64,000 nucleotides of DNA from a bacterium (GCA_021786105.1 JAJYNW010000015.1:12685-76684); one strand, 5' to 3'; shown: positions 12,546-49,295, counted from the stretch's first letter. Notes: generated by a model not told the origin, from the letters alone. Made by a program: numbers and translations.

Positions 12546-12548
12546 AAA

Positions 12549-14312
12549 TTATTTTCCGTTTTGTTTTGCCAAAATTTCCTCCGGGTTGGTAGTAATTAGC
12601 TGATGTTCCTGCGGGGAGGCCACCACCCGCATGGCCACATGAGTGTTGCCGGCAAAAAATATACCCTCGCCGATCCCCTCTGATAACAGCAGTCTTTGCT
12701 CCCCTTCTGACAGGTTGAAAACATGAGCCAGCAATTCGATGGAGGAAGGGGCTTGTTTTAAAAGGATTTGAATGGATGAATTAGAGATAATTTCTTTGCC
12801 TCTTTCAGTGGCCAGGAAATCTTCAATGTCTTGAGTGATGGTGGTGAGTCCTAAATAGTATTTGCGGGCCCGCTTGGCCATATCCACCAAAAAGTCCGCT
12901 GAATCCTGGTTGCGCATCAAATACCAGGCTTCATCCACAATCAGAATTCTTCGTTTCAATTTGCCACGGATTTTGGTCCAAATATAATCTAAGATCATGT
13001 GGATGGCCAGGGGCCTGAGTTGATCCGGTAGGTCGCGGACAGAAAAGACCGTAAAGGAGTTGGACAGGTCAACATTCGATTGCGAGGAGAAGATGCCGGC
13101 TAACGATCCTTTGATAAATCTTTCCAGTCGGGCGGCCAGTTCGGCTGCGGCTGGTTCTTCCATACCGAGTAGAACTTTATATAAATCTTCCATTAAGGGT
13201 GGCACTCTATTCTGAGTTTTTGGATCATCGGTAATACCCTTGAGCTGGTAAGTTTGTTTGAGGCTGCGGTCTAAAATGGCCGCTTCTTGGGCATTTAAGT
13301 TGCCTAAAACAATTTTCAAAAATGTTGTTAAAGACAAAATTTTCCGGCCTAGTTCATTTTCGCCTTCACTCAGCTCCCCTGACATATCAAAAGGGTTAAT
13401 CTTGACCGGGCTGGCAGCGGAAAAATTGATGTATTCTCCGCCTACGGCTTGAGATAACGGGAGGTATTCCTGTTCGGGATCAATGACAATAATTTCTGCC
13501 CCAAACATTAATGATCTTAAGGCTTCCAGTTTTACCAAATAAGATTTACCGGCGCCGGCTTTGGCAAATATCACCGAATTGGCATTTTCTAAAGAGAAGC
13601 GGTCGAATAAAATCAGCGAGCCGTTGTGCTCATTAATACCATACATGATTCCTTCGTTAGCTGTTAGTTCTGATGAGGCAAATGGGAAAGTGGTAGCCAG
13701 CGAGGTGGTATCCATATTATGAGTAAGATTTAACAGATCAGTTCCTTGGGGTAAGGTCGACTTAAACCCGTCCTCCATTTGTAAAGTGGTTTGCCGGGCG
13801 GTGATAGATAATGAAGCTAGGGTGGACTCTACCAGTTTGGAGGTGTTTTGCAGTTCTTCCAAAGATTGGGCCGGAACAGTGACATAAAGGGCAAACTGGA
13901 AGAACCGCTCTACTCCCCTAACCAGCTGGTCTTGTAAAGTCCGGGCATCTTCTAGGGCTACCTCCACCGCCGGATCAACCGGCCGGCCGCGCTCCAAATC
14001 TGTTTGGATGGTGGCTTCCATTTCCGCCACTTTGCGTTTTAGTTCATCCAAAACCCCTTGTGATTTGGAAGGGTAGATAAACATGGAGATTAGCAGAGAA
14101 TGATCAAAAGAAATGAGCGGTTCCAGCCAGTTGGGTTCAACAAATCTGGGGTAATCGGATACGAAGTAAGTTCGGAAGAAGCGGTGATCCAGCCGCAAGT
14201 TGCTAAAATCCACCTCAATTTCTGCCGGAGCCAAAACATCTTCTAAGGTTAGTTGAGGAATAGTTGGTTCGTCTTTGATTTTTGGCTTGTTTGACAGACT
14301 TGGTAGTTTCAT
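12549..14312 (-). CDS. VirB4/TrbE/CagE-like type IV secretion ATPase, C-terminal ATPase part
   Basis: Walker A FAKAGAGKSYL, Walker B RRILIVDEAWYLM, FSVRDL region; 4-nt ATGA overlap with the upstream N-domain ORF. Confidence 0.7.
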   Translation of the reverse strand: MKLPSLSNKPKIKDEPTIPQLTLEDVLAPAEIEVDFSNLRLDHRFFRTYFVSDYPRFVEPNWLEPLISFDHSLLISMFIYPSKSQGVLDELKRKVAEMEATIQTDLERGRPVDPAVEVALEDARTLQDQLVRGVERFFQFALYVTVPAQSLEELQNTSKLVESTLASLSITARQTTLQMEDGFKSTLPQGTDLLNLTHNMDTTSLATTFPFASSELTANEGIMYGINEHNGSLILFDRFSLENANSVIFAKAGAGKSYLVKLEALRSLMFGAEIIVIDPEQEYLPLSQAVGGEYINFSAASPVKINPFDMSGELSEGENELGRKILSLTTFLKIVLGNLNAQEAAILDRSLKQTYQLKGITDDPKTQNRVPPLMEDLYKVLLGMEEPAAAELAARLERFIKGSLAGIFSSQSNVDLSNSFTVFSVRDLPDQLRPLAIHMILDYIWTKIRGKLKRRILIVDEAWYLMRNQDSADFLVDMAKRARKYYLGLTTITQDIEDFLATERGKEIISNSSIQILLKQAPSSIELLAHVFNLSEGEQRLLLSEGIGEGIFFAGNTHVAMRVVASPQEHQLITTNPEEILAKQNGK

Positions 14313-15124
14313 TCAGTTAATTCCTCTACTACAAACGGATGAGTTCTGGTGCTTTGGGTTATAGTTGGCGTGCCGGGTGAGACTGGTGCGCCCGGTGGAT
14401 AGGTCGGAGTATCAGCGATCTGGTTGGTGGACTGGCTTATTGGTGAACTGGTTGGCTGACTTACTGAAATTGGTTGCGGATTTTTCAGTCTAACCGCTAA
14501 TTGTTCTGGACTGACCGGTTGGGTAATTGATTGTTCTAAAGCTTCTCCATTATATACTTCCTTCGGAAGACTGTAATTCTCCGAATTATAAATATCATAG
14601 AAGATCTCAATCAGTTCCCGTCTGGATAACTGGTCAGCGTTTAGCCCTACCCGGGCCAATTGTCTGATGATTTGGTCTCTGCGGGGCCAAAGCACGGTTT
14701 TAATTTTCTGTTCCAGTCTTTCTTTTGAGGCGGTAATGCCCAATTCTAAGGCAAAAAGCGGGATGACAATATAAAATTTTTTATCCAGCACTTCGTTTTC
14801 CTTAATGGTGCTTTGGATGAATTGTTTATACTGGGTGATCATTTGCGATAGTAAGGGATTAGTTTGTGCTTTTTTGGCTTTATCCAAAAGTTCTAAGTAT
14901 GAAGTAATATGAAGTCTTTCCGAATGTATCATGATTTGAATGCTAAAAGACAAGGAATTGAGCATTTGGGCAAAAGAGGAAATAATCGCTACCTGTTCTC
15001 TCTCTGAAAGCAGGCCAAAGTTGACAGCTGAAACTTGTAGGACCAGCGCCCCTCCGCCGTCTTTTAGCAGCAGGATATCGTCCTGGATGTCAGCGATAGA
15101 TAAATGAGATTGTGTCGTATACAT
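14309..15124 (-). CDS. VirB4-like N-terminal domain encoded as a separate ORF
   Basis: IADIQDDILLLKDGGGALVLQVSAVNFGLLSEREQ resembles the conserved N-terminus of Gram-positive VirB4 homologues; low-complexity C-terminal linker. Confidence 0.5.
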   Translation of the reverse strand: MYTTQSHLSIADIQDDILLLKDGGGALVLQVSAVNFGLLSEREQVAIISSFAQMLNSLSFSIQIMIHSERLHITSYLELLDKAKKAQTNPLLSQMITQYKQFIQSTIKENEVLDKKFYIVIPLFALELGITASKERLEQKIKTVLWPRRDQIIRQLARVGLNADQLSRRELIEIFYDIYNSENYSLPKEVYNGEALEQSITQPVSPEQLAVRLKNPQPISVSQPTSSPISQSTNQIADTPTYPPGAPVSPGTPTITQSTRTHPFVVEELTE

Positions 15125-15133
15125 CTTTGAGCT

Positions 15134-16183
15134 TTACTCCTTTGCTGCTATTAACAAAGGAGGTAATACTTGACCAGTTAATTCCATCTGTAAGACATCA
15201 AAAGTCAGGCCCTCCTTTTCCAGCTCTAAAGTATAAGTCCCATTCGGTAAGGGGGTGGAGCCGGTAAATTGGCCCAGCTTATTGGTTTTTAAGGCTCTGA
15301 CCGGCAGGCCCTCCTTATCGTAGATGACTGCTACTACCCCTTCCAGGTAATCGTTCTCTTTGTTTTTTACAATCCCATTGATCACATTAGGAAAGGTGGT
15401 GAGGGCGATTTGGGTTTGTTTGGGTTTTGCCGGAATGACCACTTTAACTTTCTCTTTTAGAATGACTGGGGGAGGCGGAGAGGCAGATTCTGGTTGCGGT
15501 TCTGCGGTAACCGACTGGATTTCCTGTTTGATGGTTGAGGCCTGACTAACCAAGCTTTGCAGGTCATCCAGGATTTTATTGACTTGTTGACCGTAATCTA
15601 CCGGTACAGGGGTAGGCTTTTGGGCGGCTGTTTTAATTTGGGATAAAGTCCGTTCAGTTTGGATAATTTTCATTTGTAATTGCTGGGCCTGACGCGCCAG
15701 ATTAACTGTTTTGCTTAGCTCTTCTTGGGTAGGAAGTTCAGCTGGCGTACCGGCGGGTCGAGGGGTCTGCGCTTCGGCAATTTGGTTAGGTGCTGGTTTA
15801 CTGGTTTGCTGATTGATTGGATCCTGATTTGCGTTATTTAAGTACATCATTAGACGGTTGTTGAATGAAGGATTTTCTTTAAAACTTTTGCCGTTTTTCC
15901 GCCAAACTCTGACGGTGGGGGAATAAACAGCTTTCAAAAAAGCTGCCAGCCAATAATCCAAAGGCCGTGATCCGACCGGTAAAAAAGCAAAACTGATTCC
16001 TAAAATTGCCGAACAGATAATGATCGGCCAGGCGATTAAAGGGAAGCTGTGTGCAAAGAATATAAACATAAGGTAGGAAACAGTAGCTCCGCCCGCCAGA
16101 TAGCCAAATTGTTTGAGGGTCATATCCCCAATTAGCTTAAACTGGAAGGAGGTGACATTTTGCGGAATCGGGTGGACATCCAT
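15134..16183 (-). CDS. Membrane protein: N-terminal two-TM VirB3-like segment, coiled coil, C-terminal CarboxypepD_reg-like beta-sandwich
   Basis: Two TM helices at residues about 30-75, Q/P-rich coiled coil, C-terminus GVVAVIYDKEG...PNGTYTLELEKEGL; first gene of the VirB4 operon. Confidence 0.4.
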   Translation of the reverse strand: MDVHPIPQNVTSFQFKLIGDMTLKQFGYLAGGATVSYLMFIFFAHSFPLIAWPIIICSAILGISFAFLPVGSRPLDYWLAAFLKAVYSPTVRVWRKNGKSFKENPSFNNRLMMYLNNANQDPINQQTSKPAPNQIAEAQTPRPAGTPAELPTQEELSKTVNLARQAQQLQMKIIQTERTLSQIKTAAQKPTPVPVDYGQQVNKILDDLQSLVSQASTIKQEIQSVTAEPQPESASPPPPVILKEKVKVVIPAKPKQTQIALTTFPNVINGIVKNKENDYLEGVVAVIYDKEGLPVRALKTNKLGQFTGSTPLPNGTYTLELEKEGLTFDVLQMELTGQVLPPLLIAAKE

Positions 16184-16684: not shown

Positions 16685-17623
16685 ATGCCAGTATCAGAAC
16701 GAGAACGAACAGCTATTGCCAATATTGCAGGTTGGAGAAACACCGCCCCTGCTCAATTTGCAGAAGAATTAGCCTCTTTAAGTTTGGAAACTCATAGAAT
16801 TGCAGACCCCTATTCTTATTTGATTACAGCGAAAGGAGAATTGTTTTCACCTACAGCTAGATGTCTGATTAAAGATACCATCGATGATAAAACTAGTTTG
16901 TTAGGTAGATTAGAATACCAAGCTGTTTTAGTCACTGAGCAATGGGTAGCTAACAATAATGAGGGAGTAAGTATTTGGGTTAGCCCACCAAAAAAAGGAA
17001 TATATCCCACCTCTAAAATAATTGTTCAGGAAATAGTGCATGAAGGCGGAGTGAAGAAATTATTCAACCGGGCCATTGTTTTGGATTTTAACGAAGAACA
17101 ATGTATGAGGTTTGCTTGGAATCTGACTAGTTTTAGCCACAATAAGCCTATTTTCAGAGACTTGGATGAGATTAGAGCTATTCCTTTAGTATTGAATACT
17201 CAAAATAAATCTTGGATTGATATCTTGGAAAAATTAATTGATGTTCCGAAAGTTTGGGCAATGATTCGAAACGGAGAAGATAAGCAGTATAAAAAAGAGA
17301 CCCTCAGGCAGGCTGTAATAGTCCAAAAGCAGTTCTTTACTGATTCCAGGCTATCTTATTCAGATGAAGCAAAAATAGCCGTTATGCAAATGCTAGGGTC
17401 AAAATCCGGCAGTTGTCCGCCGCGATCTGGTACTCAGGGCAGAACAGCTTTTCAAGCTATTGCCGGTTCTGCCGTGACAGTTGGCAGTGGAGGGGGATTG
17501 GTCGAATCAGATCAATATGGGTCTTTGGAGTTTGAGTGCCCAAAGTGCAAGAAAACAAATACCAGACCAAAGGGTCAACTAATACCAAACTGCCAGCATT
17601 GCGGGCAAGATGTCCGTTGTTAG
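16685..17623 (+). CDS. Hypothetical protein with C-terminal zinc ribbon
   Basis: 312 aa; CPKCKK...CQHCGQ C4 motif at the C-terminus; no other recognisable domain. Confidence 0.4.
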   Translation: MPVSERERTAIANIAGWRNTAPAQFAEELASLSLETHRIADPYSYLITAKGELFSPTARCLIKDTIDDKTSLLGRLEYQAVLVTEQWVANNNEGVSIWVSPPKKGIYPTSKIIVQEIVHEGGVKKLFNRAIVLDFNEEQCMRFAWNLTSFSHNKPIFRDLDEIRAIPLVLNTQNKSWIDILEKLIDVPKVWAMIRNGEDKQYKKETLRQAVIVQKQFFTDSRLSYSDEAKIAVMQMLGSKSGSCPPRSGTQGRTAFQAIAGSAVTVGSGGGLVESDQYGSLEFECPKCKKTNTRPKGQLIPNCQHCGQDVRC

Positions 17624-17631: not shown

Positions 17632-17895
17632 TTGGGATCTATGAAAACCTCCAAAGATTTACAGTTTAAAGTTCTTATAGAACAAGATGAAAATGGGCTG
17701 TATGTGGCTTCAGTTCCTGAGCTTCCTGGTTGTTACACTCAAGGGAAAACTTTGGAACAAGTTAGAAGAAGAATCAAAGAGGCGATAGAATTGGTATTAG
17801 AAGCAGATGAAGATTTAAAGAAAGAGAAAATACAATCTTCGAAATCTCCACAATTCTTCGGCATAGAAGAAGTGACGATTCGAGGCTATGCCTAA
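17632..17895 (+). CDS. hicB: HicB-family antitoxin (UPF0150)
   Basis: NGLYVASVPELPGCYTQGKTLEQVRRRIKEAIELVLE matches the HicB N-terminal domain. Confidence 0.7.
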   Translation: MGSMKTSKDLQFKVLIEQDENGLYVASVPELPGCYTQGKTLEQVRRRIKEAIELVLEADEDLKKEKIQSSKSPQFFGIEEVTIRGYA

Positions 17896-17974
17896 ATTAT
17901 CTCCTATTTCAGCTAAAGAGTTAATTAAAAATTCTACTTTTAGGAAGTTCTATGCTGGAAATATTAATACTTGA
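17888..17974 (+). pseudogene. hicA: Truncated hicA toxin remnant (28 codons)
   Basis: MPKLSPISAKELIKNSTFRKFYAGNINT then stop. Matches the HicA start MPKLPxISGxELIK but the gene is about 60 aa too short; overlaps the hicB stop. Confidence 0.5.
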
Positions 17975-17999
17975 CAAAAAGTATTACTTTTTGTATATT
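17971..17999 (+). promoter_or_regulatory. Near-consensus sigma70 promoter for the ATPase gene
   Basis: TTGACA, 17-nt spacer, TATATT. Confidence 0.45.
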
Positions 18000-18042
18000 A
18001 GTAATTGTGAAAAGGAAGCTATTCCAGCAAATTACAGCCAGA

Positions 18043-19161
18043 ATGGAGGCGCCGGAAGCGATTGTTGTAACCGGCATGCGCAGAGTTGGGAAGACAACAC
18101 TAATTAAGCAGGTATATGATAGTCTAAATACTGCCAATAAGATTTTTCTTGATTTGGAAAACCCTGTTAACCAAAAGTACTTTGAAGAAGTAAATTACGA
18201 AGCAATCAAATACCGATTCCAAACCCTTGGTATAGATTTATCCCAAAAGGCTTATATCTTTTTGGATGAAATTCAATTTGTCAAAAATTTACCCTCGGTT
18301 GTTAAATATCTGATGGATCATTATCAAATCAAGTTTTTCTTAACCGGCTCCAGCTCTTTTTACTTAAAGAATTTATTTTCCGAATCTTTGGCAGGCAGAA
18401 AAATAATTTATGAGTTATTTCCTTTAGATTTTGAGGAATTTTTGCTTCTTAAGGGCAGTCATATTGTTATACCTGAAAAAAATGTCAGTGAATCTATTTA
18501 TCAGACAATTATTCCTTTATATAAAGAATATATAGAATTCGGGGGGTTTCCGGGGGTTGTTGTGAAATCATCTCCTAAGGAAAAGCAGGAGGCATTAATG
18601 GATATATTCAGCGCTTATTTCAATAAAGAAGTTTTAAGTATTGGCGGTTTTCGGAATAATCAGGCGGTGAGGGATTTAATGCTGCTCCTGATAAGCAGGA
18701 TCGGTAGTAAAGTTGATGTGCAAAAATTATCTGCCGAACTAGGAATATCAAGGATAACTGTCATGGAATATCTGGCATTTTTGGAAGGGACATATTTTAT
18801 ATCGTTGTTATCACCATATTCTACCAATAAGGATACAGAAATAAGAGCTGCTAAAAAGGTATACTTTTGCGATAGTGGTTTAGTCAATAGTATACAAAAT
18901 ACCCCCTTTGGTAACCTTTTTGAAAATACAATCTATAATCAATTGCGAACTCGGGGAGAAGTAAATTATTACCAGCGAAAGAGTGGAGTAGAAATAGATT
19001 TCATTCTTAATAAACAGGAAGCATGGGAAGTAAAGACAAAAGCTGACAGTCATGATTGGATTAAGCTGCAAAGATTGGTCAAAGAGCTTAAGTTAAAAGA
19101 GGGGAAAATAGTTTCTTTTGAATATTCTCAAGCTAATGTTATTTATGGATTTCAAATCTAA
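18043..19161 (+). CDS. AAA+ ATPase of the DUF4143 family
   Basis: Walker A VVTGMRRVGKTTL, Walker B IFLDEIQ; the track ORF starts at 17971, but the internal ATG at 18043 follows the promoter. Confidence 0.65.
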   Translation: MEAPEAIVVTGMRRVGKTTLIKQVYDSLNTANKIFLDLENPVNQKYFEEVNYEAIKYRFQTLGIDLSQKAYIFLDEIQFVKNLPSVVKYLMDHYQIKFFLTGSSSFYLKNLFSESLAGRKIIYELFPLDFEEFLLLKGSHIVIPEKNVSESIYQTIIPLYKEYIEFGGFPGVVVKSSPKEKQEALMDIFSAYFNKEVLSIGGFRNNQAVRDLMLLLISRIGSKVDVQKLSAELGISRITVMEYLAFLEGTYFISLLSPYSTNKDTEIRAAKKVYFCDSGLVNSIQNTPFGNLFENTIYNQLRTRGEVNYYQRKSGVEIDFILNKQEAWEVKTKADSHDWIKLQRLVKELKLKEGKIVSFEYSQANVIYGFQI

Positions 19162-19271: not shown

Positions 19272-19478
19272 ATGAAAGAAAAAATATCCAGTGAGATAAA
19301 TAGCGTTATGAGTACGGGCACGGAATATACTGCTCAAACGTTTAAAAGCGCTCTTTATTTGGCTGAGTCAATAAGGAGAAGTTTTTGGGGGGAAACAATA
19401 TTGGAGCGGAGTGGAGGTAGATGGGTGCCGCGGACAGTTAAACCAGGGATAAGACATCTAAGGAGTATTATTCGTTGA
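19272..19478 (+). CDS. Small hypothetical protein
   Basis: 68-aa ORF with an AGGGAGG RBS-like sequence upstream; no homology recognised. Confidence 0.25.
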   Translation: MKEKISSEINSVMSTGTEYTAQTFKSALYLAESIRRSFWGETILERSGGRWVPRTVKPGIRHLRSIIR

Positions 19479-19502
19479 CACAAATTTTAGGAAGTTCTAT
19501 AC
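19474..19502 (+). promoter_or_regulatory. Sigma70-like promoter for the 1434-aa gene
   Basis: TTGACA, 17 nt, TATACT; then AAGAGGAAAA RBS before the ATG at 19543. Confidence 0.45.
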
Positions 19503-19542
19503 TGGAATTAGGCCATAGAATTTCCGATGAAAGAGGAAAACT

Positions 19543-22500
19543 ATGGCACAAATTGAAAGTTATAACCCTGAGCGAAGTCGAAGGGAAAGAATTATGGCAG
19601 AAAGTAGTGCAATTCCAGAAGGAGCCCGTGATGTCCCCAAAAACCAATTAGTAATAGTGGGCCCAGGTGGTGAATACCGGGGACAATATAGACCTCCAGA
19701 AACGCCAAAGCCTCCTGAAGACCGTTTACTTCCAAGAAGGGTGGAAGAAGAAATAGCAGAAAGAGGAGGTAGTGAGTTTGAAAGAGCCAGATTGCTTTAC
19801 GACCATTACATGGGATTACCTCTCCCTATTGAGCAAGGGCTAAGAGATGAACTTCAAAGACGCCAAGCGCAAAGAAGAGCAGAGCTTGAGCGATTAGAAC
19901 AGGAAGCCGAAAAACACCCGGCTCAACCAGTGAAATTAATTACCAGAGAAATGCTGAGATCTTATAAAAGAATTAAGGAAACCAGGATCCGCGAATTGCA
20001 GGGTGGAGGAAGAGAGGATGCCATAGAACGGGAAAGAAGTAGGGGAGAATTGCAGGAAAGAATATTTGAAGATTATACTGAACTTGCTTCAGAGAGGAGT
20101 ATTCTTGCCGGCTTAGGACGCTACTTATGGGATGGTTTTCATACGGCAGTTGTTAATAATGAAAAAGGTATAACAGGTTTAACTCTTAAAAATCCTTTTG
20201 CAGAACGATTTTTTGAAATGATTAAACGGATGAGGCAAAGGGACAGGATGAGTACGAAAGAAAGCAGATATTTTCAGGTTGAATCATGGTATGGTGGATC
20301 TACAATCGTGATGTTTACCTGGCCTGAAAGCGCCCGGGATATGATCATTACTACCATGGATTGGATGAAAGATCGTATAGCAGATATAGGTCAGCGCGAT
20401 CCGGGAACAGCAAGTAAAGAATTTGAGGAAATGAGGTCACTTGGCCCTAATCTTTTGAAAAATACCCGTATCCGCATTAACGATGAACCAGTTTTGGTGG
20501 CAGAGCATGGGAAGATTCAGGAAACAAACCCGGATTACTTAAGAGCAAGAGCCCTTAGCGAAGGTCCGCCCGATGTCTTTGCCACTGAGATAATTACAAA
20601 AAAGGGCAATACTGAATTTGGGCCACAAGCTAAAGAAAGATTTGCTGCCAAATTTATTGAGAATTTCAATGCCATGTTTTTAGAAAATAGATCTGCAGCT
20701 TATTTGATGCACAGATTAAGAACATACAAAGATGGTACTTATTGGACCGGTCATGATTGGCATGCCGATAAAGTGAAAGAAGGGGATATCAAAGATTACC
20801 GGGCAAAAATACAGGAAGAGCTGATGGGTGAAGCTGCTACTCTTGATTTCTTTACTGAAACTATTTTTGTCAATAACCAAGACCTTTTTCAGGATGTGAT
20901 TCAAGGAAAAGATATTGGGGAAACAGCGGAAAATGTAGAAGATGTGAGGTTAGCTTATAAAGGCTTTTTTGAACTCAGAGAAAGGAACGGTTTGCAGTAT
21001 AGTATTAATGATCCTCTAGAAAGATTACTGTTAGATCCCGGAGATGTAATAAGACAAAGAATTAAAGCTACAGGAGATGCTGAGGCTTTAAAAAGGCATG
21101 ATGTGCGTGTAGCAGTTTTCAGAAGAACAAAAGAATTATTAGACAGAAGAGAAGGCTTTGACTTTATTAGCATGGCAGAAATATATAAGTTGGAGAAGCG
21201 TATGAGACGGCCGCTTTCAGATGAAGAACTGGCCGATTTAGCAGAAGTACATAAAGATGTTATCCGTGCACAGTTGCAGCAAACTCTGCAATCTCAGGGA
21301 CAAGATCCTGATCAGAATAAAGATTGGATTGAACAAAGCATTATAGAAGTTAAAGAAAGCAGAAAACAGGAGGCTATTAGGAGTAGGATACGCGCTCGGG
21401 TAGAGGAGATTAGCCGGGGAAAAAGCTATTTTGCAGAAACTTGTGCAGAAACATTAATACGGTTTGATCAAGCTAAGAAGGCTGGTGATTTAGCAAAATG
21501 TGATCAAATAGCCTGGGGATGGGTTAAAGATTATAACAGCAAGCTTATTCGATCTCATTTACCAAAATGGTACCCGAGCGGTTGGGATAAAGTCAGACTA
21601 AAAATAGACAGAGCGGCTAAAGTGATTGACCGTTCTTTAACAGAGGAAGAGAGGGAAGCAATGTATGAAACAGCATATCTGCCCGAGGGAAATGATGAGG
21701 AGTCAATAGCAAGAAGACTTGACCTTATTGCAGGCCGCGGAGAAGAAGCGAGATTTGGTTTTGAGATGGCCAGAGTCTTTTCACCGTTCTTGATGGAGTC
21801 TTCTTTGTTAGGAGGCATGAGAATCAGAATGGTGATGAAAAAAGGACCACATGCTGGAGAATATATTGGCAGGCTGGATGATGATGAAACCAGCGTGTTG
21901 TGTGGTCTTATTAAAGGAAGGGTAAATCCTCAAACGCGTGAAGTTGAGATTGAGAAAGATGTCAATGGTGAAGCTATTATTATAGATCCTGAGAGAAAAA
22001 GTATCCGTATTTCGGACATACTTGAGGCTCGGTTGGCCAAAGCTATTGCCGACGAGGAACACGAAATAGAACCTTTCAGGTTAGCTAAACATCAGGCATT
22101 GACAGCCATGTACAGGGCTGAACTATCTGGCAATCAGGCAGAAATGGCTGCGGCACACCAAGCTTTGGATAAAGCAGCCAAAGATTTAAGAGAAAAACTA
22201 TGCGACTGTCAATTTATAGTCACCCATGCTTTTAAAGCAAAAGGTTTAGTTAATGGTAGATGGCCAACATGGCCACAGGCATCAGCTTTGGATAATTCTG
22301 GAATTAAGTTGTTTGGAGAAATCTTAGCAGAATACGGAGTAGAGGTAGCTCCAGGCCTGCCTTTTGCAGACTATAAGAGCGAAATTTATGAGTATTTGGA
22401 AAGAGAAAGAAGAGGCCAGTTTGCAGAGATGGATCGGGCAAATCAAGAGTTTATGGAAGATAAATATCCTATTTATGAACGTGACGAGTGGACCGGAGAG

Positions 22501-23847
22501 ATTATTATGGATCCGGTGTTTGAGAATGGCGAGCCCAAGAAGGATCAACAAGGGAAAACGGTTATGGCACCAAGACCAGCTATATCCATATTTACCATGT
22601 CTGATCCCTGGGGCGAGCCAGGGCCGATGTCTGACCGGCCGCGGGTGGTAAATAAAGGAGACTGGGCAGAGAATACCATGGTCACTGAAGCAGAGTATAA
22701 TATCTCTACTAGCGGCGGAGTGAAATTCCCTGAATTTATCCGCTATGCCAGCATTCGCTTTTTACCTTTAGGAATATCGGGGCTGGGTTCCCCAGGCCTT
22801 TGGGATTTGAATAATTTCATTAAAGGAAGGAATGAAGTTGAATTCCATAAGCAAAAATTGTTTGATCCAACAGACATGCCCAAAAATGCCAGAGCGCAGG
22901 CTGCAGCCTATAAAGCCCGGATAGCTTTAACAGGCGGCAGTTTAGGTGAAGGCCAATTCACCCCAGGATTTTTAAATGAACCATTTAATGGTGCATTTAC
23001 TATTGCCGATTGGCTCCGTCAAATAGCCACCAATCAAGCTGGTTTTGATGCTTACAAGATGGAGAAAACCCAACTGTATGTAAAGAAAATGGAAGCTATG
23101 AGGAATGGAGAGACTCTCAAGGAGGGGGAACTAGAGGAATTAAGGCAACTAACTTACGAAGATTATTTTGTTCTCATTAAACATAAGACTATTGCAGATG
23201 AGTTTTATCAAACCACCTATAAGACTTTTGGCAATTTCGTTACTTGGCTTAAAGCTGAAAAGGAAGTTGAGCAAAACCGGATTGGTAATGCTCCAAGGAA
23301 CTATGCTTATGATAATACAAAACGCTGGTATGCCTTTAGAAAACTGATGCGCGAATCCATGCACAAAGGCGAGCGGGGTTTTATTCAAAGGTTAGGTTAT
23401 TCTCCTGAGATAGCTAGCGAGCTTTCCTTAAGAATGTTAGAAACCGGTATGCAGGATGCAGATTACTTGATTTTAAGGGATTATGAGAGGGAAAGATTGG
23501 CTCAGGAAGGATCATTAATACTTTCTAAAGTCTTAATTGATGCAGAAAAACAGAAAGGACTTTCATTATTAGATGAGACAACATGGGAAGATCAACGTGC
23601 CGAGGTAAAAAAAGCTTTGGAAACAGTCAGAAGAAGAGGCTTGCTGGAGTTTATGAGAGAAGAAGGATTTTCATGGTATTCAAAAATTGAAGGGGTAGAA
23701 AAAGGGCGATATAAACGCGAAGATAAATTTTATTTAGGGGAAAGAGTACCTGAAGCAGTTAGGAAAAACGGTAATATGATTACAAATTATGAACGCCGGG
23801 TAATGAGATCTGCAGAGTATCAATATCAACCACCTGTCACACCGTAG
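19543..23847 (+). CDS. Giant orphan protein (1434 aa), highly charged, no TM or signal peptide
   Basis: Uninterrupted 4.3-kb ORF with strong promoter and RBS; E/R/K/D-rich; no Walker or other catalytic motifs recognised. Confidence 0.6.
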   Translation: MAQIESYNPERSRRERIMAESSAIPEGARDVPKNQLVIVGPGGEYRGQYRPPETPKPPEDRLLPRRVEEEIAERGGSEFERARLLYDHYMGLPLPIEQGLRDELQRRQAQRRAELERLEQEAEKHPAQPVKLITREMLRSYKRIKETRIRELQGGGREDAIERERSRGELQERIFEDYTELASERSILAGLGRYLWDGFHTAVVNNEKGITGLTLKNPFAERFFEMIKRMRQRDRMSTKESRYFQVESWYGGSTIVMFTWPESARDMIITTMDWMKDRIADIGQRDPGTASKEFEEMRSLGPNLLKNTRIRINDEPVLVAEHGKIQETNPDYLRARALSEGPPDVFATEIITKKGNTEFGPQAKERFAAKFIENFNAMFLENRSAAYLMHRLRTYKDGTYWTGHDWHADKVKEGDIKDYRAKIQEELMGEAATLDFFTETIFVNNQDLFQDVIQGKDIGETAENVEDVRLAYKGFFELRERNGLQYSINDPLERLLLDPGDVIRQRIKATGDAEALKRHDVRVAVFRRTKELLDRREGFDFISMAEIYKLEKRMRRPLSDEELADLAEVHKDVIRAQLQQTLQSQGQDPDQNKDWIEQSIIEVKESRKQEAIRSRIRARVEEISRGKSYFAETCAETLIRFDQAKKAGDLAKCDQIAWGWVKDYNSKLIRSHLPKWYPSGWDKVRLKIDRAAKVIDRSLTEEEREAMYETAYLPEGNDEESIARRLDLIAGRGEEARFGFEMARVFSPFLMESSLLGGMRIRMVMKKGPHAGEYIGRLDDDETSVLCGLIKGRVNPQTREVEIEKDVNGEAIIIDPERKSIRISDILEARLAKAIADEEHEIEPFRLAKHQALTAMYRAELSGNQAEMAAAHQALDKAAKDLREKLCDCQFIVTHAFKAKGLVNGRWPTWPQASALDNSGIKLFGEILAEYGVEVAPGLPFADYKSEIYEYLERERRGQFAEMDRANQEFMEDKYPIYERDEWTGEIIMDPVFENGEPKKDQQGKTVMAPRPAISIFTMSDPWGEPGPMSDRPRVVNKGDWAENTMVTEAEYNISTSGGVKFPEFIRYASIRFLPLGISGLGSPGLWDLNNFIKGRNEVEFHKQKLFDPTDMPKNARAQAAAYKARIALTGGSLGEGQFTPGFLNEPFNGAFTIADWLRQIATNQAGFDAYKMEKTQLYVKKMEAMRNGETLKEGELEELRQLTYEDYFVLIKHKTIADEFYQTTYKTFGNFVTWLKAEKEVEQNRIGNAPRNYAYDNTKRWYAFRKLMRESMHKGERGFIQRLGYSPEIASELSLRMLETGMQDADYLILRDYERERLAQEGSLILSKVLIDAEKQKGLSLLDETTWEDQRAEVKKALETVRRRGLLEFMREEGFSWYSKIEGVEKGRYKREDKFYLGERVPEAVRKNGNMITNYERRVMRSAEYQYQPPVTP

Positions 23848-23876: not shown

Positions 23877-25706
23877 TTAAGTAATGGTATTCTGTGTTTT
23901 TGACGTTTGTTGTTGAGGCTTTCTTTTAAATGGCCAGGGAGGAGTCCAATCCATCTCTCTTGCTTTTGTTAAACCAGGTTTTCCAGTATATGGTACCCAT
24001 TTCATTGAATCCTTATCTCTTATAAATTGTGTTTCTCCAAAGACACTTGTTTTAGCCCCTTGGCCCCAGTTAAGACCGCCCATATAGGTTCTTTGGGCAT
24101 AACCCTGGCCGCGGCCAAAGCCGCCCATTACTTCCTGTCCGATTGCCGCTCCTGCCTGGCCGCCCCGCCCAATAGTTTTGGTTACGATATCAGGGATTGT
24201 GGGAAGTGCCATTAGAGCTCCAAACGCCAATAAAATTCTTACGAAACTAAGATCCATCCCTCCCAGCAGTGGGAAGGTGGTGGTGTCCACGATACCTCTG
24301 CCGCTGCCGATCTGGGCATAGGCCGGGGAGATTAAGTTCCCGCCGCTTGGTTGACTAGAGCCGGCAACTTTAAACAGGCATTTGTTTAGGTCTTTGTCAG
24401 GGCAGTGCGGGGCTAAATCAGGCCCCATGATGAATGCCACAAAATAGAGTACTGCCACGACGGCCGGGAATATCAAAATATTGCCAATCATATTTAAAAC
24501 CCAGCCTGTTGCCATCCCCTGTCTGCCCGGTAAAGAGGCAATAAGAAATTGAAATGGGGCGCTGATAGTTAAGAAAATAATTGTCAGCCAGGCCATAATT
24601 AAACGTAGCAGCAGTTTGATCATTTGATAGATTAAAGCTAAAGCAGCGGCAAAGCTTAAAAAGTATCCTAGGAAAAACGGTAAGGCCACATTAGCCGTAA
24701 CTCCTCCAAGTAGACTTAACACCGGACCTGCAATTAAGCCCCAGGGTGGCGGGATGCCACCAGCAATGGGCATTAAGAATTGGGCAGAAAGCCAAAAAAC
24801 CACGATTCTTAGTGGATTTATAGCATCTCCCAGATTGCTGATGATACTATTGGCCACACTTTCTGCTCTGTCTCGGGTCACTACTCCTGTTAGTGGGGAC
24901 ATGAGGCTGAGGATATTTTGATTAGAGAGTTTCTGTGTCAAATTTAATTGTTCTTTAAACTCGCCATTATCTAACTTTCCCTGAGCAGCTACAAAATAAT
25001 AACCTACGACATTCGTTCCGACAAATGCCATGTCAGAGATCAGGCCGGCTAAAAAGTAGGAAAAAGTAATCATAATCAGGCCGATGACTAAACCCGGTAA
25101 AGCAGTTTGGGCAGTAATGACTGTTTGCGGATTGATTTTATTCCTAAACATAATCATCAGTCCGATGACTAAAAAGACTATAATCATGATGACATAAGCA
25201 ATATTTCTGGATACTTGCCAAAGGGTTAAAATGGGGTTTAACACTGCTGCTCCTGATCCAACCACCTGGGCATTGGCTGTTTTGACAATGCCTAAACCTT
25301 GTCCCACTGAAGCTAAATAATCAGCGGTTCTGACTGGCGGATTTTGGTATAACATTCCGATTAAGTTGGTAGTAGTTCCTAATACACCTCCGGAAGTATT
25401 AACCTGGGATAATACCGGGATGCTTTGAATCATACCCTGAGCATTTTTAGTCACTTGATAAGTTAAGCATGGTTGGCCGATGACCGATTGCCCGATGGCC
25501 AAACAGGAAAAAGAATGGAATAAGTTATTGACTAACAGGTCAGTATAGAGAGGGGAAGTAGGGCTAATAGTAGTTGGCAGTTGGGTAACAGTTGGGGTAA
25601 CAGGGGTGGCAGGCATAGCAGCAGGAGTAGCGGTCGCAGCATAAACAGGAGCAGTAAGGAATAGATAACCAGCAGTTAGCAGTAGGGCAAGGATCCGGGC
25701 AAACAT
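23877..25706 (-). CDS. VirB6/TrbL-like polytopic membrane protein
   Basis: Signal peptide, Pro/Thr-rich N-terminus, at least 7 TM helices, Gly-rich C-terminus; heads the pilin-like array. Confidence 0.45.
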   Translation of the reverse strand: MFARILALLLTAGYLFLTAPVYAATATPAAMPATPVTPTVTQLPTTISPTSPLYTDLLVNNLFHSFSCLAIGQSVIGQPCLTYQVTKNAQGMIQSIPVLSQVNTSGGVLGTTTNLIGMLYQNPPVRTADYLASVGQGLGIVKTANAQVVGSGAAVLNPILTLWQVSRNIAYVIMIIVFLVIGLMIMFRNKINPQTVITAQTALPGLVIGLIMITFSYFLAGLISDMAFVGTNVVGYYFVAAQGKLDNGEFKEQLNLTQKLSNQNILSLMSPLTGVVTRDRAESVANSIISNLGDAINPLRIVVFWLSAQFLMPIAGGIPPPWGLIAGPVLSLLGGVTANVALPFFLGYFLSFAAALALIYQMIKLLLRLIMAWLTIIFLTISAPFQFLIASLPGRQGMATGWVLNMIGNILIFPAVVAVLYFVAFIMGPDLAPHCPDKDLNKCLFKVAGSSQPSGGNLISPAYAQIGSGRGIVDTTTFPLLGGMDLSFVRILLAFGALMALPTIPDIVTKTIGRGGQAGAAIGQEVMGGFGRGQGYAQRTYMGGLNWGQGAKTSVFGETQFIRDKDSMKWVPYTGKPGLTKAREMDWTPPWPFKRKPQQQTSKTQNTIT

Positions 25707-25753: not shown

Positions 25754-26194
25754 TCAGGGCTTAAATGGACCGCAGAACCAGTTGGTGGAGTCGCCGCATA
25801 AAGCTTTCATGTTAAAAACTGTGACAGGTTGATTTGTGAAGCCGGCAATCAGCTGTAAAATAATCCACGCTACAGCCATAAAAAGTACTCCTAAAATGGC
25901 CCATGACAGAGTGTAGTGGGCAGCCTGGAGGGCTTTAGGTTCCCCGCCGGAGGTCAGGTATTTAAATCCGGCAACAAGCAGTACCATGAGCATGGCAATA
26001 AACCCCAGGCCAACTACTACAGACAGGACATTGCCAACTGTTCCTTCGATTTCATTTAATCCGGCCGGGCAGGGACCATATTTGGCAATTGAGGCAGCAT
26101 CAGAAGGGCAGGGCGAAGGAACAGGATTTGCTGCGTAGGCCGGAGAAACAAAAAAAGCCAAGATTAAAGTAAAGAGCAGCAATATCTTCATCAA
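25754..26194 (-). CDS. Pilin-like paralog 1 (signal peptide, conserved TM-SGGEPK-TM hairpin)
   Basis: SP MMKILLLFTLILAFFVSPAYA; FKYLTSGGEPKALQAAHYTLSWAILGVLF. Confidence 0.5.
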   Translation of the reverse strand: MMKILLLFTLILAFFVSPAYAANPVPSPCPSDAASIAKYGPCPAGLNEIEGTVGNVLSVVVGLGFIAMLMVLLVAGFKYLTSGGEPKALQAAHYTLSWAILGVLFMAVAWIILQLIAGFTNQPVTVFNMKALCGDSTNWFCGPFKP

Positions 26195-26257
26195 TTAATC
26201 ATTATTCACTAATGTTAAATCATTTGCAATGGCTGGAAGATCAAATGAAATTTGGTA

Positions 26258-26626
26258 TTAGCTGGGAGCTGGGATTGGCAGAGTGCCAATGTTGGGGAAG
26301 CCTAAGATTTGGGCTGCCAGTTGAGCCAAGGCAAAGGCGACAGCCAGAATGGCGATACCAACTAAAGCATTGATAATTCTGTTTCTGGCTTTGGCCACCG
26401 CTTCTTTGTCTCCACCGGACACAATCCATTCAAATGCCCCCAAAATCAGCATCACCAAAACTACTAATACTGCTATGGAAAAAGCGATCGTGATGATATT
26501 GGTAATAAAGTTGCCGATAGTTTTATAACCATAGGGAGGCGGGGAGATGGTTATATCTGTAGCCAAGGCCGGAGTAGCGGTTAACAATGAAAATGCTGCA
26601 GAACCAATAAATGCTAATTTTTTCAT
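26258..26626 (-). CDS. Pilin-like paralog 2
   Basis: Signal peptide; LGAFEWIVSGGDKEAVAKARNRIINALVGIAIL. Confidence 0.5.
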   Translation of the reverse strand: MKKLAFIGSAAFSLLTATPALATDITISPPPYGYKTIGNFITNIITIAFSIAVLVVLVMLILGAFEWIVSGGDKEAVAKARNRIINALVGIAILAVAFALAQLAAQILGFPNIGTLPIPAPS

Positions 26627-26662
26627 CTCTGGTTTAACTATAGCTATATCGCAAACGACTTG

Positions 26663-27388
26663 TCAATACCCCCAGTTCACGGGAGGAGAACAATCTGAGG
26701 GATTAGTTGGTGGATGAGTTAAGGCAAAAGCTTGCTGACCCGGGCAGGAGATGCGATAGAGGTCGCCCCATCGCTCGATTGTGCATCCTTTGCAAACGCT
26801 CTCGTCAAAAAACTCAAATCCGGTAAATGTGCCCAAAACTGAGATAATGGCAAAAGCCGCGGCAAAGAGTAGGATGCCTATAATAGCATTTAAAATTCTC
26901 CTTTGAGCGGCAGCTAATTGTTCTTTATCCCCTCCGGAAGTAAGCCATTGAAAGGCTCCCCAGAGGATCATAAATAGCAAGACAATGGCGGCTACCATAT
27001 AAATTAAGTTGACGCCGTTTGATAAAAATTGGCTAATAGCTCCGGCGCCGGTCGGGTCTTTTTTTAACATGCCTTGCAGCGGGTTGGGAGGCAGAATTTT
27101 GCCAAACAGGTTTTGGACAGTATCTATTTGGCATGTAGAAGCTTGGGTAGTTTTACCAGGTGGGATATCCGGGGTACCGTCTTTATTATAATGCAGTTGG
27201 CAGCTGTATTTTTTTCCCTGATAATCATCGCAGGTATCAACACCGGGGTGGCAAATTTCGTCGTGACCACAAGGAACACCATGGCAGGCGCTGGTATCTG
27301 CTAAAACGGCTGTGTGACTAAACAGTAAAACAGCGGTTATAACGGTAAGAAATGCTAATAAGCTGGTTAGGAAAAATCTCTTCGACAT
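26663..27388 (-). CDS. Pilin-like paralog 3 with Cys-rich ectodomain
   Basis: Signal peptide; 12 Cys in the N-terminal 90 aa; LWGAFQWLTSGGDKEQLAAAQRRILNAIIGILLF; Cys-rich C-tail. Confidence 0.5.
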   Translation of the reverse strand: MSKRFFLTSLLAFLTVITAVLLFSHTAVLADTSACHGVPCGHDEICHPGVDTCDDYQGKKYSCQLHYNKDGTPDIPPGKTTQASTCQIDTVQNLFGKILPPNPLQGMLKKDPTGAGAISQFLSNGVNLIYMVAAIVLLFMILWGAFQWLTSGGDKEQLAAAQRRILNAIIGILLFAAAFAIISVLGTFTGFEFFDESVCKGCTIERWGDLYRISCPGQQAFALTHPPTNPSDCSPPVNWGY

Positions 27389-27527
27389 GGATCCCTAAAA
27401 ATATCTTACCATAAACTCATACAAATCTCTTATCTTTATCACATTTCTTCCATTCATTTTTCTGTTAGCATAAAGCATAGCCTATAACCTTGACAAAAAT
27501 ACTATAGAGTATTAAAATGGCGCTCAA

Positions 27528-28433
27528 ATGGGTAAGTCGGGAGAGTTAGAACAAGACAATCAAGCTAAAAATGCAGCAATTGAAGAAGCTGCCAAAAAGG
27601 GTATGGAGGCATCCAAAGGTCAGGGTGCTGATTCCTTAGTAGAAAATTCAGATGCCAGTCTCCCCGGAAGTCTTAGTCCGAAAACCAGATTAGCGCTTGC
27701 TTGTGGAGTTGGTATATTGGCGCTTTTAGGTATAACCTCTTGTATTTTTGGTGAACCGCCAGTTGCAAAGGCCGGAAATCCTGATACGCCTGTTGCAGGC
27801 CCTCAGCCAACTTATACACCTTTGCCAACTTATACTCCGTATCCTACCGCTGAGCCGACTTATACACCCTATCCGACTTATACTCCTCAGCCAACCTTTA
27901 CTCCTCTGGCTACCGCTATACCTACATCAACTCCAGCGCCCACCCCGACTCTTCAGCCAGGCATGACTTTGTTAAACCCTACCCAGCCCGGTTTGTTTAT
28001 CCTGCAAGCTCCTGAGCCGCGAGTGGTGCATGCGGATACAATTAATCCGGCAATTTGTTACCCACAAGTGGTTGATAAACCAGTTCCGGTTAAAGTAGAA
28101 GTGCCGCGCCAGCTTAGGGAAGACGAGAGGGTTGTGACCGATGCAACATTGAACGATTACACTAGGAGAAAGGCTGAGGAAATTACCGCCCCGCTCAAAA
28201 GCGAGCTTGATGCAACTAAGGCCAAGTTGACAACTGCAGAAAAAGCCCTGAGCGATTGTAATACTAACTTAACAGATACCAAGAAACAATTAGATAAGGT
28301 TCAAGGGTGGCATTATGATATTTGGTCTGGTTTGATAACTGCTTTGCCGGTTTTAGGGCTGGCGGCAGGGTTGGCTTATAGATTTAGACAAAGAATTATT
28401 GTTCGTCTCTATCCTGGTATTGTTTTCCCTTAA
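27528..28433 (+). CDS. Membrane protein with PTYTP tandem repeats and coiled coil
   Basis: TM at about 60, (P)TYTP(Y/L)PT repeats x8, coiled coil, C-terminal TM; promoter TTGACA-17-TATTAA upstream. Confidence 0.45.
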   Translation: MGKSGELEQDNQAKNAAIEEAAKKGMEASKGQGADSLVENSDASLPGSLSPKTRLALACGVGILALLGITSCIFGEPPVAKAGNPDTPVAGPQPTYTPLPTYTPYPTAEPTYTPYPTYTPQPTFTPLATAIPTSTPAPTPTLQPGMTLLNPTQPGLFILQAPEPRVVHADTINPAICYPQVVDKPVPVKVEVPRQLREDERVVTDATLNDYTRRKAEEITAPLKSELDATKAKLTTAEKALSDCNTNLTDTKKQLDKVQGWHYDIWSGLITALPVLGLAAGLAYRFRQRIIVRLYPGIVFP

Positions 28434-28457
28434 TTTAGCAGTTGTTTTGACTCAGCT

Positions 28458-28790
28458 CTAACTTTGGAATAGCTGGAGATTGGTAATTCCGAATAAACTG
28501 GACAGTAAAAATTGCAGAATGATAAAGGCAAACATTAAAATAATAAAGCCAATGATGGCGTGAGTAATCATTTGTCTGGCTCCGGCAATTTCTTCTTTAT
28601 TCCCGCCAGATTTTAACCAATTAAAAGCTCCCCAGAGGAAATAAATTACCACTGCAGCCGCGGCAACGGAAAATATGGTAGGAACTAACTTGCTGATGAT
28701 GTCTCCAAAAGAAGAAAATGATGGGCCAAAGCCAAAACAGTCTTTAATTGATACGCCGGAGGGGTAAGGGGGAGTAGGGCAGGGGTTCAA
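28458..28790 (-). CDS. Pilin-like paralog 4
   Basis: LWGAFNWLKSGGNKEEIAGARQMITHAIIGFIIL. Confidence 0.5.
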   Translation of the reverse strand: MNPCPTPPYPSGVSIKDCFGFGPSFSSFGDIISKLVPTIFSVAAAAVVIYFLWGAFNWLKSGGNKEEIAGARQMITHAIIGFIILMFAFIILQFLLSSLFGITNLQLFQS

Positions 28791-29083
28791 AATGGTACCC
28801 CTCCTTTCGGTTGTAAAACTTCTGCCACAAATTTGGCCACAAAGAAAGCCAATAATACTATGATCAGACCAAGGATGGCCCAGGTGATCCTGGCCCGGGC
28901 TTTGGCCAAATCTTCTTTTTTCCCCTGGGCCATAATGTAAGAAATTGCGCCCCAGATTAAATAGGTAAAGGAGAGGAAAACAGCGGCAAAAAAAGCAATG
29001 TTGATGAATACGGAAAGCAGGTCACCTAAAGTTTTCTGAGGTGCAGGATTAGCTTTAAAAATATCGTTTAAGCCAGGTATCAT
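28787..29083 (-). CDS. Pilin-like paralog 5
   Basis: IWGAISYIMAQGKKEDLAKARARITWAILGLIIV; ATGA overlap with paralog 4. Confidence 0.5.
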   Translation of the reverse strand: MIPGLNDIFKANPAPQKTLGDLLSVFINIAFFAAVFLSFTYLIWGAISYIMAQGKKEDLAKARARITWAILGLIIVLLAFFVAKFVAEVLQPKGGVPF

Positions 29084-29086
29084 AAT

Positions 29087-29121
29087 AGTGACTAGTCGCC
29101 AGAGTCTAGAGTCAAGTGGAT
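29087..29121. repeat. 35-bp direct repeat, left copy (agtgactagtcgccagagtctagagtcaagtggat)
   Basis: Identical to 29473-29507; flanks the four-helix-bundle gene. Confidence 0.8.
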
Positions 29122-29468
29122 TTCAATAAACCACTTAAGATTCTAGCTGTTTCTGTATGAATATCTAATATTCTCTCATAATCTTGAGAGTTTATAAACT
29201 TTCTTTCATAAGCAAAATCAATAAAAAATTCTAGTTCTGTTAAAGATGCGACTGCCATTTGATAAAAATGTTTTCTATCTTTTAAACTACTTCTGCTGTA
29301 TCCCTCAGCTATATTGGCGCAAACAGATAAAGCAGCTCGACGCATTTGGGAAATTAGTCCGAAAATTTCGTCTTTAGGGAAGTTGGTTGTTTCATCGTAA
29401 ATTAAATGAGTTAGCAGATTACTTTTTTGCCATGCAATTAATTTTCTGTAACCTTTATTATTTCGCAT
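29112..29468 (-). CDS. Four-helix-bundle protein (TIGR02436 / bAvd-like; 23S rRNA IVS protein family)
   Basis: 118 aa; WQKSNLLTHLIYDETTNFPKDEIFGLISQMRRAALSVCANIAEGYSR typical of this family. Confidence 0.65.
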   Translation of the reverse strand: MRNNKGYRKLIAWQKSNLLTHLIYDETTNFPKDEIFGLISQMRRAALSVCANIAEGYSRSSLKDRKHFYQMAVASLTELEFFIDFAYERKFINSQDYERILDIHTETARILSGLLKST

Positions 29469-29472
29469 AGTT

Positions 29473-29507: not shown

Positions 29508-29524
29508 GGCTGTTTTTCTAGACT

Positions 29525-49281: not shown

Positions 49282-49295
49282 CTATAAAAATAAAT

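Follow-up and report, generated by a model that had tools for sequence, protein, structure and literature searches.

What does a protein of 1434 residues without recognisable domains do in the middle of a type IV secretion system (T4SS) locus? The question is raised by a 64,000-nucleotide stretch of bacterial DNA (GCA_021786105.1 JAJYNW010000015.1:12685-76684; hereafter the window, with positions counted from its first letter), in which a single gene, here called BIG, lies between a divergent operon encoding the ATPase VirB4 and an array of genes for a VirB6-like membrane protein and VirB2-like pilins. The BIG protein is confidently predicted to adopt a fold that has no known relative among the PDB chains and BFVD models compared. 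This unmatched fold, together with a position at the T4SS locus in every related genome found, makes BIG a candidate cytoplasmic partner or cargo of the secretion machine. A preliminary description of the same sequence had suggested a secretion substrate, a scaffold or a phage-derived protein, and the first two are now the leading explanations.

The gene and its putative expression signals are as follows.

19543-23847, plus strand: BIG open reading frame (ORF), ATG start, 1434 codons, translating without a stop
19475-19503, plus strand: promoter-like site TTGACA-17-TATACT, 11 of 12 positions, 40 nt 5′ of the BIG ATG; consensus match only
19530-19539, plus strand: ribosome-binding site (RBS) AAAGAGGAAA, ending 4 nt before the BIG ATG; read from the sequence, consensus match only

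That BIG is a real gene is confirmed by the length of its open frame, which is far above chance expectation in DNA of 41% GC, and by the existence of full-length homologs; the 4.3-kb ORF and its 1434-residue product are exactly as first described. Of the strong promoter and RBS also claimed at that time, a near-consensus site and an RBS are indeed present, and the former is the best-scoring promoter-like site in the region, but the number of such sites there is not above shuffled expectation. The encoded protein (166 kDa, pI 5.8) is soluble and acidic. Specifically, charged residues account for 32.9% of its length (11.4% E, 9.3% R, 6.4% K and 5.8% D), and it carries neither a transmembrane (TM) helix nor a signal peptide (peak 19-residue Kyte-Doolittle value 0.91), in agreement with its earlier characterisation as a highly charged cytoplasmic protein. 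Motif scans of BIG returned no Walker A (strict or loose), DEAD, HUH/HxH, CxxC or S-adenosylmethionine motif I pattern and nothing notable for GGDEF or HD; the looser patterns DxD, HNH, GxGxxG and PD-(D/E)xK gave a few short matches. Similarly, searches of Pfam, NCBIfam, PHROGs, PADLOC and PDB sequences yielded no significant match to BIG, in agreement with the earlier view that it has no recognisable domains. The best PHROGs match had an E value of 0.037, and PDB sequences gave chance matches only, at E 0.24 with BIG itself (phmmer) and E 1.8 with the family profile.

Is BIG then an orphan, as it had been called? The term holds in that BIG matches no known family or fold, but it fails in that BIG has a family of its own. 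When 5.8 billion proteins were searched by word index, 10 homologs with identities of 52-100% came up, among them a hypothetical protein of Candidatus Daviesbacteria GW2011_GWF2_38_7, and a profile-seeded word-index search recovered these 10 and none further. An exhaustive search with an HMMER profile among 1.84 billion cluster representatives returned 39 clusters (defined at 50% identity), all at E ≤ 1e-10 and nearly all of 1,000-1,700 residues, and a search that started from a distant member added another Daviesbacteria protein, so that the family now has about 50 known members. All members with a named source come from Candidatus Daviesbacteria, ultra-small bacteria of the candidate phyla radiation (CPR), and scans of GTDB genomes and JGI metagenomes with a 10-sequence alignment likewise returned named loci with BIG from Daviesbacteria only. 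No Pfam domain, including those of the P-loop, relaxase and ADP-ribosyltransferase (ART) families, is found in 35 BIG relatives. Among 48 members none has a TM segment (19-residue hydropathy is below 1.6 in all 48), and all are net acidic with the exception of two short fragments.

Conservation spans the full length of BIG, interrupted by variable insertions near residues 541-600, 781-810, 991-1020 and 1151-1200 and bounded by variable N- and C-terminal tails. When conserved residues are taken as those kept in at least 90% of 35-45 members, two blocks stand out.

21505-21642, plus strand: Trp-rich block, BIG residues 655-700, with W658, W660, N665, W676, P678, W681, D682, R685 and R697
22600-22992, plus strand: most conserved core, BIG residues 1020-1150, with R1034, S1055-T-S-G-G1059, D1111, G1131-G1132 and G1142, and with E1098-x-E1100 at lower conservation (34 and 39 of 45 members)

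The same threshold is reached by R235, E262, G757, G758, R762, F891, P908, K945, R956, R957, G1039 and N1258, and by no Tyr or His across the family. Judged by this pattern, residues ~1020-1150 are a candidate active or ligand-binding site. Whole-length conservation with invariant W, R, G and STSGG residues, combined with the compact and confident structural model described below, argues that BIG is a folded, working protein and not low-complexity filler.

The C termini of the family show a peculiarity of their own. About 12 of 45 members, belonging to both of the BIG types described below, end in Ala-Ala (...LLAAA, ...RYAA, ...ILAA), where about 0.3 would be expected by chance. These ends resemble ssrA-like or ClpX-type degrons or a terminal signal; the BIG protein of the window ends in ...QPPVTP.

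Given an alignment of 45 sequences, AlphaFold2 modelled BIG residues 186-1380 with a mean predicted local distance difference test score (pLDDT) of 90.5 and a predicted template modelling score (pTM) of 0.87, all five models reaching at least 87.5. Confidence this high from so shallow an alignment points to an architecture that is compact and well defined, and to strong co-variation. The model is a mostly helical, multidomain body with one long helical hairpin (40+23 residues, ~823-887) and two regions rich in strands and loops at ~760-822 and ~972-1150. The suggestion that BIG is coiled-coil-prone therefore survives for a few long helices, including those of the hairpin, but is otherwise overstated, because a pTM of 0.87 indicates a compact body and not an SMC-like rod. 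When the 1,195-residue model was compared by Foldseek with 350,542 PDB chains, none matched at E ≤ 0.001 (best E 0.11, TM-score below 0.1), and none of the BFVD models did so either. The top entries from both collections, such as importins and tape-measure proteins, are generic helical-solenoid noise with TM-scores below 0.12. Because such noise might mask a small domain, the core at residues 640-1165 was modelled separately (526 residues, pLDDT 85.6, pTM 0.80). Again the PDB offered nothing below E 0.2, the best entry being a 14-3-3 protein (E 0.2, TM-score 0.13).

Several known protein classes can be rejected on these grounds. BIG is not a type IV coupling protein (VirD4/TcpA), as it has no P-loop, no N-terminal TM anchor and no structural match to FtsK/HerA. 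An SMC-like or coiled-coil ATPase is rejected by the lack of Walker motifs, by the compact model and by SMC-like BFVD entries that appear at E ≥ 0.12 with TM-scores of about 0.1. A VirB6 or extended VirB6 identity requires at least five TM helices, and BIG has none. The suggestion of a phage or prophage origin finds no support either, since BIG has no PHROG match and no BFVD structural match, and IMG/VR returned no BIG locus. Homology to a housekeeping, SMC-like or helicase family, which the preliminary description had named as counting against its view, turned up in neither the sequence nor the structure searches.

The conserved core invites a more specific comparison. If residues ~1020-1150 formed a divergent R-S-E ADP-ribosyltransferase, or another nucleotide-using toxin domain, then BIG would be a polymorphic-toxin-like protein. 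R1034 is kept in 43 of 45 family members, S1055, T1056 and S1057 in at least 41 each, E1098 in 34 and E1100 in 39. These R, STS and ExE motifs follow the order found in ARTs, and their spacings of 21 and 43 residues lie in the range of known ARTs. Moreover, the BIG sequence YNISTSGG resembles the ART pattern 'aromatic-x-hydrophobic-STS'. The Arg, S-T-S and E-x-E order is thus shared with the R-S-E toxins (the C3, iota, ExoS and cholera-toxin class), but fold and profiles differ. ART Pfam families match none of 35 members, Foldseek of the core model returned no ART, DSSP places the ExE motif in a helix and finds short strands only instead of the ART beta-sandwich, and the residues that follow ExE depart from the hydrophobic ART pattern. 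The absence of an ART match to the core model led us to reject the idea that R/STS/ExE had raised, and we consider a toxin domain of this kind very improbable.

Fainter still is the prospect that BIG is a novel DNA-processing protein, substituting for a relaxase or primase in a T4SS with a conjugation-like or DNA-uptake function. The locus has no recognisable relaxase, and BIG is large and cytoplasmic like TraI. Set against this are the absence of HUH, Toprim, helicase and Walker motifs from BIG, the lack of any family-conserved Tyr or His, the net acidic character of the protein and the absence of structural matches to nucleic-acid enzymes. A conventional conjugative relaxase is rejected, with no HUH motif, no conserved catalytic Tyr and no relaxase Pfam match in BIG and 35 relatives.

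What, then, ties BIG to secretion? Its nearest neighbour is a membrane protein gene that we call VirB6-like by position and topology only.

23877-25706, minus strand: 609-aa polytopic membrane protein, signal peptide, ~8 hydrophobic helices, no Pfam match; convergent with BIG, 29 nt away

We compared 15 loci, consisting of the window and 14 others (L001-L014), of which about 11 are non-redundant. In all 15, BIG stands tail-to-tail, at a distance of 0-60 nt, with a homolog of the VirB6-like gene, which is followed by pilin genes. Ten loci extend 6 kb or more upstream of BIG, and in each of them the PrgI/TraC-like/VirB4 operon lies divergent on that side, generally followed farther out by dnaN. 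This gene order persists down to a BIG identity of only 24%. Every examined locus of this type has BIG, in one copy. The inserts found in these loci vary, including toxin-antitoxin pairs, MazE/PIN and Gp49/HTH genes, Fic, a transposase, 23S_rRNA_IVP and, in the window, an ATPase, yet they never separate BIG from the VirB6-like gene. A position kept in every related locus is genuine evidence linking BIG with the T4SS. BIG indeed sits where the preliminary description had placed it, with the VirB4 operon on one side and the VirB6-like/pilin array on the other. The view of the neighbouring ATPase as inserted also proved right: none of the other loci has this gene, which matches the candidate defence family PDC-S01.

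A second line of evidence comes from the way in which the genes of these loci have diverged. The percent identities below were measured against the window proteins.

L003 and L011: VirB4 87, TraC-like 65, PrgI 62-66, VirB6-like 72, BIG 60
L014 (an NCBI Daviesbacteria metagenome-assembled genome): VirB4 87, TraC-like 65, PrgI 65, VirB6-like 52, BIG ~26, DnaN 78
L002: VirB4 71, TraC-like 51, PrgI 45, VirB6-like 48, BIG 52
L006: VirB4 72, TraC-like 49, PrgI 40, VirB6-like 43, BIG 25

Two BIG types, just 20-26% identical to each other, thus occur in genomes that are otherwise equally related. The VirB6-like protein follows this split in part. Over its residues 1-200 the identities to the window in successive 100-residue bins are 65/78% for L014 and 60/82% for L003, whereas from residue 200 to the end they are 52/49/48/32% for L014 and 74/82/67/56% for L003. 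The diverging two-thirds correspond to the part of the gene nearest BIG. This co-divergence fits a recombination block that covers both 3′ ends, or co-evolution of interacting proteins.

The gene that directly precedes BIG provides a third link.

19272-19478, plus strand: 68-aa ORF directly 5′ of BIG, with GGAGG upstream; no Pfam or PADLOC match
23952-24143, minus strand: Gly/Gln-rich C-terminal tail of the VirB6-like protein, ~residues 521-585, after its last hydrophobic helix; homologous to the 68-aa ORF

The 68-aa ORF and the VirB6-like tail are paralogs, with tblastn E values of 2.6e-6 to 1.4e-9 in the window, L001 and L003-L007. The ORF is kept at 44-45% identity and in the same position in L001 (1929-2141), L004 (9221-9433), L012 (9230-9415) and L014 (9691-9900), and it stands beside both BIG types. 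BIG is thus encoded together with a version of the VirB6-like tail that is free and has no signal peptide, which is the most specific hint of a connection between BIG and the machine. The coupling of BIG to the VirB6-like protein is seen genetically only, in adjacency at all 15 loci, co-divergence and the tail paralog. Since no family member has TM helices, there is no Rosetta-stone fusion of BIG with a VirB6-like protein.

Could these associations merely be inherited? BIG might have nothing to do with secretion and be an enzyme or structural protein of the cytoplasm, carried along in an origin-proximal block of a narrow lineage. All source-named members are, after all, from Daviesbacteria, the whole dnaA-dnaN-...-SpoIID-DUF5657 block is collinear, and the functional link between BIG and the T4SS is putative. 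However, the block is plastic, having accepted toxin-antitoxin, ATPase, transposase, Fic and IVP genes, and still BIG and the VirB6-like gene are always together. The tail paralog is hard to explain without a functional link, as is the finding that BIG diverges together with the neighbouring part of the VirB6-like protein, and the other genes between 10125 and 30703 to which a function can be assigned are all T4SS-related, mobile inserts apart. We therefore consider inherited synteny an unlikely explanation.

The reading that we tentatively favor, while granting that it may well be wrong, is that the T4SS has in BIG a dedicated, lineage-specific partner in the cytoplasm, which docks on the VirB6-like subunit and serves as a non-ATPase platform for receiving, gating or processing. 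The 166-kDa helical body would bind the channel from its cytoplasmic side through the polytopic VirB6-like subunit, whose flexible Gly/Gln-rich C-terminal tail would be the likely contact. There it would handle what the VirB4-driven machine moves, standing in for the coupling-protein or substrate-receptor layer that the locus lacks. R1034, STSGG 1055-1059, ExE 1098-1100 and D1111, along with the Trp-rich block, would make up a probable ligand or catalytic site, and the free 68-aa copy of the tail may compete with, chaperone or regulate docking.

A number of observations weigh against such a platform. No ATPase, nucleic-acid-binding or peptide-binding signature in BIG suggests what would be handled. 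The synteny comes from one narrow lineage and could partly reflect shared descent, and the better-studied Saccharibacteria T4SS cluster is without a free BIG-like protein. The VirB6-like tail lacks clean type-specific co-variation, being 27% identical in L002, which has a type-1 BIG, versus 19-35% in type-2 loci. Finally, core machine parts usually evolve steadily, and the two-type split of BIG among close relatives is more typical of cargo or host-facing proteins.

This last point leads to the alternative that BIG is itself the main cargo of the T4SS, a CagA-like giant effector that enters the machine through the VirB6-like protein and VirB4, passes unfolded and is delivered into a bacterial host, with the 68-aa protein acting as chaperone or secretion adaptor. 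The two types are deeply divergent in genomes with equally related VirB4, PrgI, TraC-like and DnaN proteins. Of the locus genes that were compared, only the exported or surface hydrolase with SLT and Peptidase_C39_2 domains matches BIG in between-type identity. This hydrolase, the other very fast-evolving gene of the cluster, is 24-35% identical between loci whose VirB4 proteins are 77-87% identical; pilin paralogs within one array are ~25% identical (PMC12102498). BIG also has its own promoter-like site, is large and has an unmatched fold. The last 30-50 residues of type-1 BIG proteins have a net charge of 0 to +7 where the body has -4 to -50, and there is a conserved C-terminal motif, VLGxKIPPLV; the charge pattern does not extend to type 2 (-4 to +2). 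The small co-encoded partner recalls effector chaperones, and it has been suggested that Patescibacteria T4SSs may export proteins, not DNA (PMC10633639). On the other hand, no known secretion-signal domain and no recognisable toxin or enzyme domain is found in BIG, and its compact 166-kDa body would need complete unfolding. Each locus carries exactly one copy of it, whereas effector repertoires typically vary, and it is strongly conserved over its whole length within each type. Delivery of BIG as cargo is the main rival reading, somewhat less probable than the platform.

The closest functional analogy for such a cargo is CagA of Helicobacter pylori with its chaperone CagF. Like BIG, CagA is very large, mostly helical, encoded in a T4SS island and without sequence or structural relatives; both come in types that diverge faster than the machinery, and both have a co-encoded partner. 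There is no homology between them, Foldseek against the PDB did not return CagA, and the recipient of BIG would be a bacterium and not a eukaryotic cell.

For BIG as a docked platform, the nearest likeness is to the proposed cytoplasmic receptor layer at the channel entrance, as in VirD4/TcpA and the Dot/Icm coupling complex (DotL-DotM-DotN-IcmSW). BIG differs from these in having no P-loop, no membrane anchor and no HerA/FtsK fold, and could be at most a non-ATPase adaptor. A second precedent is the extended VirB6 (PMC12857230; SEML1_0011 and SEML1_0013 of Southlakia), in which a large, helical, hydrophilic module is joined to a polytopic one; here the two are adjacent, co-diverging genes. 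The large extra T4SS proteins of Southlakia are two VirB6-like membrane proteins of ~1,000-1,090 aa with C-terminal ARM-like helical domains. BIG, by comparison, is a separate polypeptide encoded on the opposite strand, has no TM helix and no ARM-repeat similarity above noise, and is confined to Daviesbacteria-type loci. BIG and the 609-aa protein could nevertheless be a split, much enlarged counterpart of extended VirB6.

The T4SS itself is known. Like the MPF-FATA-like systems described for Patescibacteria (Quinonero-Coronel et al. 2025, PMC12102498; Wang et al. 2023, PMC10633639), the one in the window includes PrgI/VirB3, TrsD/TraC-like and VirB4 proteins, a bifunctional hydrolase and a divergent T4SS_pilin array. 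It is likewise chromosomal and lies beside dnaA-dnaN, with no relaxase or coupling protein seen nearby; specifically, no VirD4-type coupling protein or relaxase is present among the window ORFs scanned, in agreement with both reports. A free cytoplasmic protein of ~1,400 aa is not described in either of them. What BIG adds is a protein family and a fold without known relatives.

Why should such a protein matter? T4SSs are widespread and origin-adjacent in Patescibacteria and essential for growth on the host in one tractable species, but their cargo and the way substrates are recruited are not known (PMC10633639, PMC12102498, PMC12857230), because no recognisable coupling protein or relaxase is present. 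In Saccharibacteria a related T4SS is essential for the epibiotic lifestyle, again without a known substrate. In Microgenomatia, BIG is a concrete candidate for the missing cytoplasmic layer or for the cargo. It is confined to an uncultured lineage. Particular residues can be chosen for mutation from its high-confidence model. The two BIG/VirB6-like types in similar genomes hint at specificity or compatibility groups, which could relate to host range. More ambitiously, BIG might represent a new class of T4SS component, namely a giant soluble protein of unseen fold that forms the missing coupling layer or the principal cargo, carries a new R1034/STSGG/ExE/D1111 pocket and co-evolves with the VirB6-like protein as a matched pair in at least two incompatible types. 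This composite proposal is conceivable, but we would not expect it to hold in full. Even if BIG is unrelated to secretion, it still defines a large family that is confidently modelled and has no known relatives.

The remaining genes of the locus can be set out briefly. The window covers the chromosomal origin region of a CPR bacterium, with yidC, dnaA (5954-7285) and dnaN (7990-9090), and further on a transfer-messenger RNA (tmRNA) gene, tRNA genes, dnaG and rpoD. A Patescibacteria monoderm-type (MPF-FATA-like) T4SS spans positions 10125-30703. Its features other than those given above are listed here.

10125-16183, minus strand: divergent T4SS operon, from Pfam matches and synteny in other loci
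15134-16183, minus strand: PrgI/VirB3-like (Pfam)
14309-15124, minus strand: TraC-like/TrsD-like (Pfam)
12549-14312, minus strand: VirB4 ATPase, P-loop_TraG/CagE_TrbE_VirB (Pfam)
10125-12545, minus strand: SLT + Peptidase_C39_2 cell-wall hydrolase, 806 aa (Pfam)
16685-17623, plus strand: 312-aa soluble protein, no Pfam match; first gene of the plus-strand unit that ends in BIG
17632-19161, plus strand: variable insert with a HicB-like antitoxin and an ATPase, outside the conserved unit and absent from L001-L014
17632-17895, plus strand: HicB-like antitoxin, within the insert
17971-19161, plus strand: AAA_14/DUF4143 ATPase, PADLOC candidate defence family PDC-S01, E 9e-66
25754-30703, minus strand: six VirB2-like T4SS_pilin genes (25754-26194, 26258-26626, 26663-27388, 28458-28790, 28787-29083, 29525-30703)

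The 312-aa protein has homologs of 308-500 aa at the same position in L001, L003, L004, L007, L011, L012 and L014. Its longer forms comprise 456-500 aa (L003 5199-6656, L014 8122-9624, L007 2-1372) and share only the C-terminal ~100 residues with the short ones; there is a weak PADLOC match to HEC-08 (E 1e-4). The pilin array is interrupted by a plus-strand gene for a 301-aa protein and by a 23S_rRNA_IVP gene (29112-29468, minus strand). Genes for such 23S_rRNA_IVP/bAvd-like four-helix bundles recur in several loci, either within the pilin array and the T4SS operon or next to them (L003 4371-4697 and 17849-18220; L013 9280-9675).

On the 3′ side of the pilin array, the plus-strand segment 30748-35171 carries genes for a 576-aa protein with a SpoIID domain, a bPH_2 membrane protein of 187 aa, the 83-aa DUF5657 and a single-TM protein of 622 aa without a Pfam match. 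This SpoIID-DUF5657 block is kept in related loci (L001 14155-16851, L013 22175-24938) and may also be envelope machinery. It is followed at 35743-36163 (plus strand) by a 421-nt tmRNA gene (ARAGORN) with an unusually long tag of 33 residues ending in ...TRVAFA. Farther along, a large serine recombinase gene (44056-45816, minus strand) overlaps the end of a tRNA-Asn gene (44017-44091), and beyond it come small ORFs and then the type I restriction-modification genes HsdR (49296-51998) and HsdM (51952-53409). The sign of the GC skew changes at ~44-50 kb, and the region 44017-53409 is possibly an integrated element.

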